The notes under the pieces: model-generated
What the model was told of the DNA's origin: nothing
Seen by the model: the letters and a program-made list of their open reading frames with translations, nothing else
The model's database searches: none
Origin: Sphingobacteriales bacterium
GTDB lineage: Bacteria > Bacteroidota > Bacteroidia > Chitinophagales > Chitinophagaceae
Reading direction: 5' to 3'
Assembly: GCA_016200915.1 (NCBI GenBank)
Contig: JACQDV010000007.1
Span: forward strand, 15,273-79,272
DNA length: 64,000 nucleotides
Position numbers and translations under genes: made by a program
Part shown: in pieces, positions 24,284 to 61,300 of the stretch
How the letters are laid out: the number at the start of each line of letters is the position of its first letter
How positions within the stretch are numbered: position 1 is the stretch's first letter

Positions 24284-24324
24284 CTCGTTTTTCCCTCTCC
24301 TGAAGGAGAGGGTTAGGGTGAGGC
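24284..24324. repeat. GC-rich palindromic element ctcgtttttCCCTCTCCtgaaGGAGAGGGttagggtgaggc (intergenic, between umuD and the 2H-phosphoesterase gene)
   Basis: Perfect 8-bp stem with 4-nt loop; member of the family also at 31394, 44972 and 59464. Confidence 0.85.
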
Positions 24325-24962
24325 TAAAAGGATGGGTTATGCAACTACAAACTGTTACTACGGTAACCATTCCCGGTTATCGCATATACGAGTACCTGCT
24401 GGTATTAAATCCGCATGAGGAACTGCGGAATAAAATTATGAAAGTAAAACAGGAGTTTTATGAAAAGTATAAGGCTCCTACTGCCATCGGAGGAAGACCG
24501 CATGTAACGCTGGTCAACTTTCTTCAGTATGAAATGATGGAAGAGCGGTTGATTAACCGGTTAAAGGCAATCGCCATGGGTTACCATCCCATTAAAGTGG
24601 AGCTGAAAGATTACGGAAGTTTCCCTTCGCATACTATTTATATTAATATCACTTCAAAAGTTCCCATACAAAACCTGGTAAAAGAAATTCGCCATGAATC
24701 ACAGCGGTTGATGAAACTCAATGATGATAACAAACCACATTTTATTATGGAGCCACACCTCACTATTGCAAGACGATTACAGCCCTGGCAATATGAAAAA
24801 GGCTGGCTGGAGTATTCGCACCGTCATTTCACCGGGAGATTTATTGCCGATGCCATGCTGTTATTAAAACGGCCTGTTGGTGAAAACCGTTATCAAATAG
24901 CAGCACGGTTTGATTTTGAAAATTTACCAGTGAATACGGTTCAGGGAGAATTGTTTGGATAA
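24318..24962 (+). CDS. 2H phosphoesterase superfamily (LigT/2'-5' RNA ligase-like) protein
   Basis: Two H-x-T/S-x motifs (HVTLV, HLTIA); true start may be the Met at 24339. Confidence 0.7.
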   Translation: MRLKGWVMQLQTVTTVTIPGYRIYEYLLVLNPHEELRNKIMKVKQEFYEKYKAPTAIGGRPHVTLVNFLQYEMMEERLINRLKAIAMGYHPIKVELKDYGSFPSHTIYINITSKVPIQNLVKEIRHESQRLMKLNDDNKPHFIMEPHLTIARRLQPWQYEKGWLEYSHRHFTGRFIADAMLLLKRPVGENRYQIAARFDFENLPVNTVQGELFG

Positions 24963-25111
24963 GCGATAAAGAAGAAATATTTGTTGACGAGCCTTAGTGC
25001 TACCACCAGGCACTTGTTGTGTCACTTCCCGCAAACATGCGGGATACGTTCTGTACTTTATTCATCATCTGTGTTAATCCGTGCAATCTGTGAGAAACAA
25101 AAACTATAAAC

Positions 25112-56871: not shown

Positions 56872-58278
56872 CTATTGCTTTAAATCAACAACGTTTTCAT
56901 TTTCCCAGTTGGCTTTAACGGTGAGTTTGGCTGCAACCGGTACTACTCTCTCCGGTTGTTTATGTACACCTGAGAATTTCCCCGGATCCCAAACACCATT
57001 TTTATTATCATCATATAAAACCCTCAATTCATAATCACCCGGGTTAACTAATTTTTCACTCCATACAGCCTCAGTAATCACTACTGATTTCACCACTTTA
57101 TCCTGTGATACAAATTGTAATACAGGGTTTTTAGTTTTATCAAGATTAGTGAACTTTAAACGCAAACTTCCATAGTCTTCGGGTTTCTTTGCTGCAAAAA
57201 TTACTGTATCAATTTTGGTTAACTGGTAACCCATCGTATCCGCAGCAAAATCTTTTTGTAAAATAAGCTGGTAAACCATGCCCGGCTGCCATTGATATTG
57301 AAGCGTAATTTTTTTATTGGATGTATCTTTTATCCACTGATAGTTTTTAATAAGGTTATGTGAACTGTCAGTAAAACTGATTTTAGTTGAATCAAAATAC
57401 TTTAACGGTTTACCAAAAGTAAATGCAAATGGTTCAATCAAGCTTTGGTGCCTGTTTTCAAGATTGTTATTATAGATCAATCTCTTTTCTGCTTTGGTGA
57501 TGCCGCTTGCAGGTCTTGGTGTTTCTTTTTCTTCTGCATAAGCATAAAGTGTAACAGGAGCGGTGGTATCGGTCATCTCAATAAACTTATCAGCAAATGC
57601 AAATGTTTCTGTTGGTGAATCATATTGTTTATTGCCATTAGCATCTTTCAAAGCATATAAGGCAAATTTACCGGCTGGTAAATTAGTAAATCGGAAAGTT
57701 CCATCTCCTTTTAATCTTGTATAATAAAATGGTTTTTTCTTTGCAACTGCTGAATCATCCAGGTTGTTATAAAGAGTAACAATTAAAGTAGAATCAACTT
57801 TACCATTCTCTGCAAGAATTACTTTTCCGCTAAGCTCTTTAGTGTCAATGGTGGTACCGGTAGAGAAAACAAATTTGTAATCTTTTAAAATATTTCCTTC
57901 ATTAATATCTTTTATTGAATAACCGAAGTCAATGCTGTAAGTAGTATTAGGTAGTAAAGAATCTTTAAGACGAATGCTCAATGTTTTAAGTCGTGATTCT
58001 AACACCGGCTGTTTATTTGGATTGGGCGAAAGGATTACATTTTCAAATGGCCGGTCTAATTCAATAAACTCATCAAAGTCTATAGTGATTTTATTCCCGT
58101 TAAAATTAAGTACAGAGTCTTTGGGTATTGATTTAACTGGTACAGGCGGCAATGTGTCTTTGTCGCCACCGGTTGGCGGTATAATATGGGCACAACCTGT
58201 TTGCACCAGAATTTGCTGGATTAAAACGATAGAGAAGATAAAATAAATTAACTGCTTGTTTCCAAAACAATTTCTCAT
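56872..58278 (-). CDS. Hypothetical secreted Ig-like/beta-sandwich domain protein
   Basis: Signal peptide; beta-rich repeats; no catalytic motif. Confidence 0.4.
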   Translation of the reverse strand: MRNCFGNKQLIYFIFSIVLIQQILVQTGCAHIIPPTGGDKDTLPPVPVKSIPKDSVLNFNGNKITIDFDEFIELDRPFENVILSPNPNKQPVLESRLKTLSIRLKDSLLPNTTYSIDFGYSIKDINEGNILKDYKFVFSTGTTIDTKELSGKVILAENGKVDSTLIVTLYNNLDDSAVAKKKPFYYTRLKGDGTFRFTNLPAGKFALYALKDANGNKQYDSPTETFAFADKFIEMTDTTAPVTLYAYAEEKETPRPASGITKAEKRLIYNNNLENRHQSLIEPFAFTFGKPLKYFDSTKISFTDSSHNLIKNYQWIKDTSNKKITLQYQWQPGMVYQLILQKDFAADTMGYQLTKIDTVIFAAKKPEDYGSLRLKFTNLDKTKNPVLQFVSQDKVVKSVVITEAVWSEKLVNPGDYELRVLYDDNKNGVWDPGKFSGVHKQPERVVPVAAKLTVKANWENENVVDLKQ

Positions 58279-58354
58279 AAAAGTTGCGCAAACTTAAGGT
58301 GTTTGCTGTTATCGTTTTCTAAAGCTTTGCCGGCAAATACCAAAATCATGTTAA

Positions 58355-61300
58355 TCATGATTCAAATTCTTCTTCCTCTTCCGTTAATTCATGTAAAGCC
58401 ACGGCCATATTATTGGTTTTAACAAAATTGCACCAGTGGCAATCTTCTTTACCACAGCCTACGTAAAAATCACGATTTTGAATTTTATCCCACACTATTT
58501 TTATCTGCTGCGTAACAGTAGTAATATCTTCCGGTTTGATAATGAGTTTTTCTTTGCGGTAATTTTTCTTTTTATCCGGCTCAATAAAATCAAATTCCGA
58601 GCTGATCACTTTCCAGTTCTTTTGCTCGTAATTATCTACTAATAATTTATAAAACACTGCCTGGCGCCAGTAATCACCGCCATCGGGATTTTTTTCATTG
58701 GGTGATTGTAGTTTTTCTCTTGCTTTATCATAATCACCGGTTTTATAATCCACCACATTTACAGCAGTTCCGTCAAATTCAAGTTTATCTAATTTTCCTT
58801 TTATAGGAACACCATTCACTACTACATTACGGATATTTCTTTCTACTGCAACAATTTTGTTCCAGGTGTTGATATATTTATCATAGTAGTTGGATAATAC
58901 TTCTTCACCATACTCCATTCTTCGCTCAAATTGTTCTTTAGTGAAGCTTTCCCGGTGACGGCGCATATACCAGTTGAAATCATTAATGAATTCTTCTTTT
59001 GAAGGAAACTGTCCTTTACCTCCACCCATTCTATCAGGTCCAATCATTTTCCTGAATAATTGTTCTAAAGCATGGTGAACAGCTGAACCAAATTCCGTAG
59101 CTTCCGATTTACCCGATGGAACACGAACCAAATTGTTGAAATAAAAATTAAGCGGACATTTTAAATAATTGTTGAGTGCAGTAACGTTCATCACAAACTT
59201 ATCTAATAACCGGCTCACAAACTCTTCTTCTAATTGTGTGATTTCAGGAGCAGCTGCTTCTCCAAACTGCAATGCCTGGAAGGCGGCCATTACTTCATTA
59301 TCTAATATCACTTTTTCAATCGGCAATTCATGCTGATCTAATATCTCTGCAATAAACATAGAAGGCTCCAGTTCTTTGCCATCATTTTTAAAGCGACTGT
59401 AGGAAATATATAAATGTTGCTCGGCTCTTGTTAAGGCAACATAAAACAAGCGGCGAAGTTCTTCGGCCCCCCCCTGGCCCCCCCCTGCAGGGGAGGAAAT
59501 AGTTGTAAACATCGTGTCGGGTAATTTGTAACCACCACCTGGTTTTCTTTTCTTCTCCCAGAAAGAGGCATTACAACCTGCGAGGAAAACATATTCAAAT
59601 TCTAAACCTTTGGAACCATGTGCTGTCATTAAGTTTACCCCTTTATCACTGCCACTTACCTGAGTTAATGGTAAAGAAATGTTTTCCTTTTCCATCAGTT
59701 CAATAATATTTACTAATTGCTGAAGTGACAATGTTGGGTTGCGACGAGTTTCTTCTTTTACAAAATCAAAGAAGCCCGTAAGAATTTGCAGCTGCCATAT
59801 TTTGTCTTCGCTTAGCATAATGTGTGTTAATACACCTGCTTCACGAATAATATTTTCAATAAGCGTTTGAATAGTTACGTTTGAAACATCTCCAATTAGT
59901 TTTTCAATAATGCTGCTGGCTTTAACAAGCTTATCATTTGTTTTGGGTGAGAACAGATATTTAGGTGCAGCATTGGCTTTGTCAAATAATAGTTTCCGCA
60001 ACGATGTTTTTTCGTCTCCAAATCTTTTCTCTGCTACTTCTACACTAAGTTTTGCAATTTCAATTGGTGGAATATGAAGCCAATCAAAGTGTAAAAGCTC
60101 AAACAGCATTTCATCGCCGCCGTAAGAAATATCATGTTCAGCAGCAAGGTACTTTATCAATAGAATGATCTTTTGAGCTAATGGTAATTCAAGGATATTC
60201 AAACTGCGTTTGCTGTACACAGGCACATTGCGCAGCTTAAAATAATTAGTTAGTTCTTCACCATATTTATTTTCTTTATAAATAATGCCAATACTTCCGG
60301 GCTTTATTCCTTGTGCTAATAGTTTTTGTACAGTAATGGTTATATCCATCATCTCCTGTCTTTGCGTTTCGTATTCTTTAATAACAGGCGTGTGAATAAG
60401 ATGGCTGATTTTATTGTTGCTTGATTTTAATTCTTTGCTTAGTCCCGGTAATTTTTCAACCAATCTTTCTTTATTGATATCAATTAAAGATTTTGAAACA
60501 TCTAATATGGGTTGAGTGGAGCGGTAATTATTGGTTAATACTACCGTCATCAAATCCTTTTGATATTTATCGGCAAAGAGCTCCATGTTTTCAATGTTGG
60601 CGCCCTGGAAACGATAGATACTCTGGTCATCGTCACCAACTACAAATACATTGGGTTTATCCCAGTAGTTGATGAGCAGTTCCACAATTTTATTTTGTGT
60701 ACCGCTGGTATCCTGGAATTCATCCACCAAAATGTATAAGAATTGCTCCTGGTAACGATTGAGCAGGTTTTTATTTTCTTCAAATGCTTTGATCACCCAG
60801 TTGATCATATCATCAAAGTCGTAGCGGTTACGGCTGCGCATAAGTTGCTGGTAGCGGTTAAACTCATTAATTGCCGCCCGCAGTTTTTCCATCTTTTCTT
60901 TTTCTTCTTCAATCTTATCTTTCTTTATATCCCCTGCATTAAATTCTTTATATTTTCTTTTATAAATGAATTCATCCCTGTTGGCTAAATCGTTTAAGTA
61001 TTCATCAATTTTCTGATTGATAAATGCTGCTGTCCATCCCTCCCGTTTCATAGTACTGAAAAGTGACTGAAGATTGGTTACTTCAAAATACACATCACCA
61101 CGGTAACGCTTTAATGGGTGATTTTTAGGAAAAGAATCGATGAGTTGTTTAAAGAGTTCAATTTTCTCCAGATCGGAAATCGGATCAAGTGCTGTTTTTT
61201 CAAACAGCGAAAGATTTTCCTGTATCACATCATTACAAAAGGCATGAAAGGTGTAGATATTCACTTTATAGGCTTCGGAACCGATAAAGGAAAGCAGCCG

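Follow-up and report, generated by a model that had tools for sequence, protein, structure and literature searches.

Four short G/C-rich repeats lie in the 64,000 nucleotides (nt) of Sphingobacteriales bacterium DNA analysed here (Chitinophagaceae; assembly GCA_016200915.1, contig JACQDV010000007.1, positions 15,273 to 79,272 of the forward strand; hereafter the window). Judged from their sequence, they are very probably copies of the BoxC/PIT/TM_ECO family of intrastrand-triplex repeats, two of them recently gained in frame within conserved genes. Copies 1 and 2 stand between genes, copy 3 inside metH, and copy 4 inside a UvrD-type helicase gene. The repeat family itself is already known, and the window is its rediscovery in a new phylum; the coding habit of the copies and their link with DUF559 endonucleases appear to be undescribed. 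As an overall explanation, it is considered probable that selfish triplex repeats are spreading and overwriting loop-coding DNA, with DUF559 as the likely engine. The source lineage is a Sphingobacteriales/Chitinophagaceae-type metagenome-assembled genome (MAG), with a MetH 100% identical to a Sphingobacteriales MAG protein. Its G+C content (GC) is 37%, and that of the window is 35–41%; only eight 30-nt stretches of the window reach 70% GC, both coding copies being among them.

The triplex finder looks for a C-stem followed by its Watson–Crick complement and then by the mirror of that complement, with G*G, A*A, and T*A allowed between blocks 2 and 3; a motif is placed in the class when its stems are at least 7–8 nt long with at most one mismatch and its loops are short. 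It returned exactly four copies in the window, at 24292–24323 (+), 31403–31435 (+), 44973–45007 (-), and 59469–59496 (-), and none in 20 shuffles. Three occurrences of the core CCTCTCC-N4-GGAGAGG (24294, 31404, and 44987) compare with none in 100 dinucleotide shuffles of the window; the flank GGGTGAGGC also occurs three times, each adjoining such a core, vs. 0.12 expected from shuffling, and core and flank combined occur three times vs. none expected. An earlier reading of this DNA (the original prediction) had described one family of approximately 40-bp palindromic elements with a flank, present at these four places both between genes and in frame in conserved genes. The four copies, with none expected by chance, and their unity as a family stand, but the palindrome does not: the unit has three blocks, and the supposed flank GGGTGAGG is the third of them, which mirrors the G-rich arm GGAGAGGG once a single A is taken as T.

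The unit is 32–39 nt long and tripartite, running from a C-stem through a loop, G-stem 1, and a second loop to G-stem 2. Copy 1 (24287–24324, +) consists of GTTTTT, the C-stem CCCTCTCC (24293–24300), TGAA, G-stem 1 GGAGAGGG, TTA, G-stem 2 GGGTGAGG, and a final C, with stems of 8–9 nt and loops of 4 and 3 nt. Copy 2 (31394–31436, +) reads CCCTCGTT, TCCTCTCC, TCAA, GGAGAGGG, AACGA, GGGTGAGG, and C, with stems of 8 nt and loops of 4 and 5 nt, and has an extended 16-bp hairpin (DNA hairpin energy -16.7 kcal/mol, z -5.7). The stems of copy 3 are perfect over 9 nt, with loops of 4 and 3 nt, and those of copy 4 are 7 nt long with one mismatch each. All four copies follow the rule for G/C-rich class II intrastrand triplex motifs of the BoxC/PIT type. 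Five of the six reading frames of the unit are open, the exception being the sense frame with TGA within GGTGAGG. When all Rfam families were applied to the window at their gathering thresholds, only tRNAs were matched, with no match at the repeat elements.

The likeness to the E. coli repeats is close. Of 5426 E. coli genomes, 5270 have BoxC copies to which copy 1 is 90% identical over 39–40 nt, and nearly all of these copies are unannotated and intergenic. The BoxC copy between holC and pepA is cggttCCCTCTCCCTTAGGGAGAGGGTTAGGGTGAGGGtaaaac, compared with cgtttttCCCTCTCCTGAAGGAGAGGGTTAGGGTGAGGCtaaaag for window copy 1, and the likeness extends to loop 2 (TTA) and the flanks GTT...TAAAA. The literal TM_ECO pattern (CCCTCNCCC-N3-6-GGGNGAGGG-N3-GGGNGAGGG) is unmatched in the window, where the stems CCCTCTCC/GGAGAGGG/GGGTGAGG are 8 nt long with T for the ninth C; the window copies are therefore filed under the broader triplex-motif family. 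The re-discovery of the repeats as PIT elements in 2000 is reportedly due to Maher's group. According to the earlier work that Holder et al. cite (PMC4666352), the first description of BoxC dates from the 1990s and its re-finding as PIT elements from 2000. Holder et al. (2015) described BoxC/PIT/TM_ECO as intrastrand triplex motifs, counted 3610 copies across 262 proteobacterial genomes, found G/C-rich triplex motifs to be abundant in cyanobacteria too, and linked triplex motifs to local genome instability (PMC4666352). The 23 copies in E. coli K-12 are said there to be "always intergenic" (PMC4666352), a trait that two of the four window copies lack, being in frame in metH and the helicase gene; this location is counted as a difference rather than an exclusion because the intergenic-only statement describes one genome and is not a definition.

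The family reaches well beyond these few copies. A scan for the exact 21-base motif over one genome per species matched at least 120 stretches (loci L004–L123; L and P numbers denote the loci and proteins compared here). Among the matches listed, the motif is found in Cyanobacteria, Bacteroidota, several proteobacterial classes, Chloroflexota, Verrucomicrobiota, Planctomycetota, Acidobacteriota, the Candidate Phyla Radiation, and Melainabacteria, in unrelated flanks. The supposition that in-frame elements of this kind would be an oddity for Bacteroidota is thus overtaken, since the family is pan-bacterial and already described (PMC4666352), as is the doubt that the motif might occur only a few times.

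Copy 3 (44973–45011, -) lies within metH (44376–47096, -), which encodes a cobalamin-dependent methionine synthase of 906 amino acids (aa) without Hcy domain and matches the activation domain of E. coli MetH at E 3e-100. The copy is a 39-nt patch, TTTCTCCCCTCTCCTGCAGGAGAGGGGCAGGGGGTGAGG, standing in place of 30 nt (ACGTTGCAAACTAATAATGGCGAAGTAAAA), a net gain of 9 nt, and the boundaries GATACxGTT and CTxGAGTTCCTCCG are conserved on both sides. It encodes an in-frame Pro/Gly peptide that includes PSPAGEGQG, where relatives have TLQTNNGEVK. The MetH comparison set comprised the best 120 orthologues, of which 118 have the short loop ...DTVTLQT(x)(x)GEVKLE... and no such peptide; the Pro/Gly loop peptide is confined to the window lineage together with P0082/P0105, and E. 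coli MetH has a loop of equal length at the position (1MSK alignment). In an AlphaFold model of the window MetH, PSPAGEGQG (698–706) is a turn between strands 694–697 and 707–710, with a mean predicted local distance difference test (pLDDT) score of 67 that falls below 50 at residues 702–704; on this model, the peptide is predicted to form a beta-hairpin turn in the activation domain. An assembly artefact was ruled out, as two independent MAG records (P0001 and P0002) give the identical MetH protein and the reading frames are intact. Between the homocysteine-methyltransferase gene and the main metH, there is also a small PDDEXK_3 (GxxExxY-type) nuclease gene (47151–47525, -); the same arrangement occurs in L001 and the P0114 contig and is missing from L002, L003, and L206, so that it looks like another small, patchily present nuclease gene of the metH operon.

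Copy 4 (59462–59500, -) is an all-G variant made up of CCTCCCC, TGCA, GGGGGGGG, CCA, and GGGGGGGG, and it lies in a gene of 1061 aa (58355–61540, -) that carries UvrD-helicase and PDDEXK_1 nuclease domains, as given by Pfam for the L001 orthologue. It encodes ISSPAGGGQGGAE directly before helicase motif VI (ELRRLFYVALTRA), where relatives have QPAAKDDD, and the peptide of the copy is SSPAGGGQGGAE. The protein exchange runs from VTQPAAKDDD to TTISSPAGGGQGGAE (net +15 nt), with 39 nt taking the place of approximately 24 nt within a 45-for-30-nt exchange. Both peptides, including the position before motif VI, and the two 8-nt homopolymer runs of the helicase copy (G8/C8) are as the original prediction had given them. 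A second lineage-specific helicase indel at 59009–59044 (-), with the Gly-rich peptide IGPDRMGGGKGQ where L001 has RDKES, was considered as a further copy and is treated as an ordinary indel, its DNA not being motif-like. In L205, a related metagenome scaffold, an N-gap with duplicated flanks lies directly upstream of the helicase motif site (approximately 2880–2917), and the gene call is truncated there; G/C-rich structured motifs may cause such breaks in assembly and gene calling. For the slipped-strand length variation that the original prediction suggested at the C8/G8 runs, this gap is the single hint.

The comparison with relatives indicates recent gain. L001 is a syntenic contig with a MetH 96% identical and a helicase approximately 91% identical to those of the window; both coding copies are missing from it, and it has no triplex motif in the 22.7 kb where the window has two. 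The occupied-versus-empty comparison revealed no target-site duplication at metH or the helicase gene, target DNA having been lost instead. By these alignments, the coding copies are lineage-specific and replaced loop-coding DNA; of the "in-frame insertions" proposed earlier, lineage specificity is upheld, but plain insertion gives way to replacement, 39 nt for 30 nt in metH and 39 nt for approximately 24 nt in the helicase gene. Motif presence differs among close relatives at each site examined. At the copy 3 position, L003 (MetH 81% identical) has a decayed 39-nt element with boundaries identical to those of copy 3, and the flanks of copy 3 resemble those of L001 (SNNADTV), not those of L003 (SDGKDTV and LQFLRQQIKKTEGQPNV). 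At the copy 4 loop, peptides of the SSPLGGGRGEAEE type occur in three helicase orthologues (P0171, P0210, and P0211), being of decayed motif type in P0171 and P0210, and the L205 helicase DNA shows a decayed motif beside a scaffold gap. A second MetH loop, after LADFIKP, holds a motif in P0058 (L206: CTCCCCC-AAT-GGGGGAG-GTTTG-GAGGAGG). Related Chitinophagaceae loci contain approximately 12 motifs in 413 kb, at variable positions.

In-frame copies are not peculiar to the window genome and occur in several phyla. Among the matches listed for the exact motif, 33 of 145 copies lie at least 150 nt inside long open frames. All ten motif-bearing long open reading frames (ORFs) that were tested proved to be real Pfam-domain proteins, with the motif inside or between domains and in both orientations: type I restriction R subunit (HsdR), dihydrolipoamide dehydrogenase (Lpd), Lhr-like helicase, M19 dipeptidase, ResB/CcsA, carbamoyl-phosphate synthase, UbiD, ATP-dependent DNA ligase, phosphoesterase, and FkbM methyltransferase. 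No description of coding copies of the BoxC/PIT family was found in the literature searched.

Both intergenic copies lie on the sense strand of a downstream gene. Each ends 15 nt before the start codon of that gene, which for copy 1 is a 2'-5' RNA ligase-like gene (ATG at 24339) and for copy 2 an SPFH/Band 7 gene (ATG at 31452). The SPFH leader carries an orthologous motif in L178 and a motif of a different subtype, in the same place, in L183 and L200; approximately 25 other relatives have no motif in this leader. A role as terminators was ruled out for the intergenic copies, since copy 1 is flanked by divergently oriented genes and both copies closely precede start codons.

The second MetH loop leads to DUF559 (PF04480), a domain of the Vsr fold. 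Seven MetH orthologues of 1063–1070 aa (P0048, P0053, P0087, P0103, P0110, P0111, and P0113; L002 7179–7730, ENA ERZ27250625) carry an in-frame DUF559 domain of approximately 165 aa at this second activation-domain loop. The insert has SPSP... hairpins before it and LSSPFGGQGAG after it, and the DNA of this tail is TCCCCC-TTCG-GGGGGA-C-AGGGGG, a motif much like the window helicase copy. Shorter inserts at the same site in P0114, P0106, and P0058 resemble deletion derivatives. DUF559 is fused with or placed in frame in three different MetH domains, IspG, and RNase H (Prevotella, up to 54 contigs), and it is also found fused with or inside alpha/beta hydrolase, MoCF, and DUF5522; approximately 30% of 106 DUF559 proteins have motif-type peptides in their ORF flanks.

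Free-standing DUF559 ORFs in Bacteroidota, Deinococcus, Sinorhizobium, and others are bracketed by inverted motifs, one on the opposite strand upstream and one on the same strand downstream. In the brackets between argG and argC (L288 1433–1966, L305 1428–1937, and L309 1452–1910) and between topA and aroK (L302 1457–1960), the motifs lie 15–40 nt upstream and 10–35 nt downstream of the ORF; further cases are L318 (516–940) and L319 (419–1061). At E. coli ycjD (L207 5209–5761), the motif lies downstream on the same strand; L299 has the downstream motif only, and no clear motif was seen at the DUF559 ORF of L298. In a tblastn search of a plasmid/chromid collection with YcjD, the DUF559 protein of E. 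coli, all eight DUF559 loci fetched had motifs beside the ORF (Azospirillum, Sphingomonas, Sinorhizobium, Klebsiella, Neisseria, Deinococcus, Picosynechococcus, and Synechocystis). The bracket is perfect in Deinococcus proteolyticus, with a motif (-) at 516–548, the ORF at 565–906, and a motif (+) at 908–940. Sinorhizobium and Klebsiella share the subtype CCCTCTCCCC...GGGGAGAGGG-TTA-GGGTGAGGGG, and other lineages have stem sequences of their own. The DUF559 loci of four replicons held 12 motifs in 6.1 kb vs. 10 motifs in 160 kb of same-replicon controls, for a Poisson P of approximately 1e-14 that is optimistic because motifs cluster and the test treats them as independent.

The clustering is itself structured. 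The 120 listed loci hold 241 motifs, and their adjacent pairs comprise 52 of (-,+) polarity, which is that of the DUF559 brackets, 13 of (+,-), and 29 in tandem. The spacings of motif pairs peak at overlap (a shared hairpin), at 4–30 nt, and at 65–87 nt; tandem arrays with units of approximately 110–160 nt occur in L084, L090, L098, L113, L118, and L122.

In E. coli K-12, ycjD is annotated as DUF559, and a BoxC copy stands on its strand approximately 175 nt downstream of the stop codon. The gene is present in 3378 of 5426 E. coli genomes (62% of complete genomes). The fabI–sapF interval (L207/L300) of E. coli holds either the ycjD-plus-BoxC unit or the eefRABCD efflux operon; ycjD stands in the place of eefRABCD in phylogroups A, B1, and C and in sequence types ST69 and ST182, and homology to K-12 stops approximately 45 nt before BoxC. 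The presence or absence of ycjD is uninformative on element boundaries because ycjD-negative strains carry eefRABCD there. Published motif counts are 19–30 in the ycjD-positive phylogroups A/B1, 11 in O157, 6–15 in D/F, and 1–2 in B2.

In the proposed course of events, the elements would be selfish, non-autonomous repeats actively spreading in a Chitinophagaceae-like lineage, the unit folding when single-stranded into a hairpin plus a predicted purine-motif third strand. A DUF559 endonuclease acting in trans may break the DNA at or near a motif or motif-like target, and repair of the break would copy in a patch from a further motif copy, which would replace DNA with little net change in length; the 39-nt unit would in this way overwrite 24–30 nt encoding a surface loop, without target-site duplication. 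The coding copies would be harmless, neutral passengers in loops, and coding events may survive because the five open frames encode Pro/Ser/Gly-rich turns and because the sites, the MetH beta-hairpin turn and the variable loop before helicase motif VI, are exposed. That the DUF559 nuclease mobilises the triplex motifs is quite possible, although it is advanced here tentatively. The inverted motifs around DUF559 genes recall the REPs around RAYT genes and the split site around a free-standing homing endonuclease gene. In a survey of PD-(D/E)XK nucleases (PMC3424549), VSR, DUF559, and DUF2726 share a group with the homing endonuclease of a group I intron (structure 3r3p), and homing-type activity of DUF559 is plausible on account of this grouping. 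A wider conjecture, of much the same tentative standing, is that BoxC/PIT/TM motifs may be non-autonomous partners of DUF559 genes in a pan-bacterial repeat-plus-nuclease system that resembles REPIN/RAYT with another enzyme. In such a system, the motif–DUF559–motif unit would be the autonomous form, (-,+) doublets its miniature form, and single motifs half-sites, and the DUF559 domain can be carried in frame in MetH, IspG, and RNase H through motif-encoded Pro/Gly linkers. The literature searched held nothing relevant on a link of DUF559 with BoxC, repeats, or mobile elements.

Several observations weigh against this explanation, among them the optimism of the Poisson figure given above. Triplex formation was obtained in vitro and went undetected in vivo, and no association of triplex motifs with transposons or mobile elements was found (PMC4666352). 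By tblastn, no DUF559 gene is present in the 64 kb of the window, and a search with two hidden Markov models found DUF559 within 8 kb of the motif in only one (L118) of the 120 listed loci, which were selected for their motifs. Such rarity would be normal for a single-copy gene acting in trans, but it lends no positive support. Motif association is not universal for the distant viral homologues, as 80 DUF559 loci on viral contigs held no motif in 242 kb. The correlation across E. coli phylogroups is confounded by shared ancestry, and O157 strains without ycjD retain their 11 motifs. The association, moreover, gives no direction, so that DUF559 genes might home into or be captured by pre-existing motifs. 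The decayed 39-nt patch with the same boundaries in the distant MetH lineage L003 points to possible allele transfer rather than a fresh hit.

Some of these points feed an alternative in which the motifs spread without DUF559, through template switching at replication forks or illegitimate recombination at a structure-prone sequence, or through another enzyme, and DUF559 genes are of homing type and target existing motifs or are trapped between them. This is regarded as rather unlikely. In its favour, motifs far outnumber DUF559 genes (119 of 120 listed motif loci have none nearby), the O157 strains keep theirs without ycjD, fork stalling and error-prone repair at triplex motifs were proposed by Holder et al. 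(PMC4666352), and the second MetH site, with a solo motif in L206, a partial unit in P0114, and motif–DUF559–motif elsewhere, fits a DUF559 gene landing in an existing motif. Template switching leaves unexplained, however, the 8–10-nt stem sequence and the fixed T/A positions of the third block that recur across phyla, the possession by each DUF559 lineage of its own motif subtype and a fixed (-,+) polarity, and the excess of 52 doublets of this polarity over 13 of the other. It is improbable that the coding copies were instead imported, as motif-bearing metH and helicase patches recombined from other Chitinophagaceae already carrying them. The 39-nt element with identical boundaries in L003, P0082, and P0105 (MetH 81% identical) and the motif-type peptides in the same loop of the helicase orthologues P0171, P0210, and P0211 can be read in this way, but the flanks of the window patch match L001 and not L003, the window copy has perfect 9-nt stems against the decayed copies of L003 and L205, and a conversion tract exactly equal to the element, without hitch-hiking flank, would be improbable.

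A role for the host is very improbable, whether as 5'-leader or regulatory structures, as selected loop variants, or as programmed sites of instability or phase variation. The sense-strand position of both intergenic copies, which end 15 nt before a start codon, the recurrence of the SPFH leader motif in three lineages, the two G8 runs of the helicase copy, and the adaptive instability speculated on by Holder et al. (PMC4666352) would all suit such a role. Yet the variable presence among close relatives at all sites examined, the functionally unrelated neighbour genes, and the placement of the coding peptides in non-conserved loops argue otherwise; no frameshifted variant was seen, the helicase fragment search having given only proteins of at most 400 aa. 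Earlier experiments, as cited in PMC4666352, detected no promoter or terminator activity, and its introduction states that purine-motif triplexes do not form in RNA. Independent local origin, with each copy arising by mutation, slippage, or quasi-palindrome correction in GC-rich loop codons and no mobile family involved, is effectively refuted. The partial matches between old and new loop DNA (GGCGAA vs. GGAGAG in metH; CCAGCT vs. CCTGCA in the helicase gene) are set against a 39-nt block of 70% GC in a genome of 37% GC, a three-block architecture with flanks common to E. coli BoxC, an expectation of zero copies by chance, and a change that separates lineages with MetH 96% identical.

Two further hairpins had been put forward as possible relatives of the repeats, and neither can be placed in the family, since both fail the triplex rule. 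The hairpin CCCCTCC-CTG-GGAGGGG (518–534, +; z -0.98) lacks a mirror-image third block and is not demonstrably of the family; possibly it is a decayed copy. The short C4-G4-G4 hairpin or mini-element GCCCCTTTAGGGGAAGGGG (30241–30262, +; put forward as 30239–30264) lies 13 nt upstream of the start of an RNase H-like gene, and similar GC-rich inserts occur there in L160 and L199 only. Taken as a whole, the original prediction is partly supported, being right in substance and incomplete.

The surroundings of the intergenic copies have features of their own. The region 23737–33350, which holds both, resembles a defence or accessory island with genes for an S24 peptidase, the 2'-5' RNA ligase-like protein, a radical SAM protein, an AAA/STAND-like ATPase, the RNase H-like protein, and the SPFH protein, together with a weak AbiU2-type HEPN match. 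Five tRNA genes (Ala, Asp, Gln, Lys, and Asn) are clustered at 28324–28881, with a weak Rfam tRNA-like stretch at 28740–28803, and upstream of this cluster are two GC-rich hairpins that fail the triplex rule, at 28159–28195 (GCTTCCCTCAC-N7-GTGAGGGAGC followed by TTTT) and at 28283–28313 (GTCCCGCC-TCA-GGCGGGAT). Truncated tRNA-like fragments are present at 30940–31060 (30963–31012 at 29.6 bits), within the 660 intergenic nt that precede the SPFH gene. The tRNA/RNase H-like region appears rearranged, because relatives often have a tRNA gene directly upstream of the RNase H-like gene.

The repeats matter for annotation, as triplex motifs can account for odd peptides of the PSPxGEGxGV type and for split gene calls; for assembly quality, as GC-rich structured patches can cause gaps; and for protein evolution, as triplex motifs are a ready source of loop variation. 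The DUF559 bracket, seen with E. coli ycjD and in Deinococcus, rhizobia, Neisseria, cyanobacteria, and Bacteroidota, is the first concrete, testable candidate for the maker and mover of BoxC/PIT, and it suggests a function for a very large family of domains of unknown function. E. coli K-12 has both partners, ycjD and BoxC. If the proposal is true, BoxC/PIT motifs, which have been without known origin or function since the 1990s, would gain a nuclease partner.

Among known systems, BoxC/PIT/TM_ECO is the nearest, with the same C/G/G three-block architecture and purine-motif triplex rules, nearly the same sequence (CCCTCTCC...GGAGAGGG-TTA-GGGTGAGG), A/T-rich flanks, dispersed copies, presence/absence variation between close relatives, and no target duplication. 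The window differs in stems one base shorter than the published TM_ECO pattern, in its host, a Bacteroidota MAG of 37% GC, and in the in-frame position of two of four copies in conserved genes, those of E. coli K-12 being intergenic without exception in the published account; the DUF559 link, too, is absent from the literature searched. Cyanobacterial small dispersed repeats (SDRs) are reportedly mobile repeats of less than 40 nt that lie inside genes and RNA genes without target duplication (a 2008 study by Elhai and colleagues). They resemble the present elements in being very small and mobile inside genes without target duplication and differ in sequence, with neither triplex architecture nor an associated gene known to have been reported for them. 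Rickettsia palindromic elements (RPEs) are 100–150 bp long, are restricted to Rickettsia, have no triplex-type third block, and add approximately 40 residues. They share with the window elements the habit of short, structured repeats in frame in conserved genes, tolerated as surface loop peptides, which makes the comparison drawn in the original prediction fair as a functional analogy; membership is ruled out by the unit of 32–39 nt, which occurs across bacteria and replaces target DNA, and by the Sphingobacteriales/Chitinophagaceae host.

Membership among miniature inverted-repeat transposable elements is likewise ruled out, since there is no target-site duplication and target DNA is lost, although the doublets do have inverted ends. 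With the homing endonucleases of the Vsr/DUF559 group (PMC3424549), the system shares a small endonuclease gene between or inside conserved genes (argG/argC, topA/aroK, and metH in frame), lineage-variable presence, and insertion with loss of target DNA (from eef to ycjD in E. coli); it differs in having no intron or intein and in flanking dispersed repeats that also exist as hundreds of solo copies. The repetitive extragenic palindromic (REP) sequences with their REPIN–RAYT systems (PMC3116915) offer an architectural analogy, with singlets and inverted doublets, a low-copy gene between inverted repeat copies, lineage-specific subtypes, and copy numbers that differ greatly between related strains; the doublets and the flanking of a low-copy gene are both found with the triplex motifs. 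Membership is nevertheless ruled out because the bracketed gene is PF04480 DUF559, a predicted Vsr-fold PD-(D/E)XK endonuclease, and not a Y1 (HUH) transposase of the RAYT type. The triplex repeat, unlike REP, has a third block, and its copies in coding regions are frequent.

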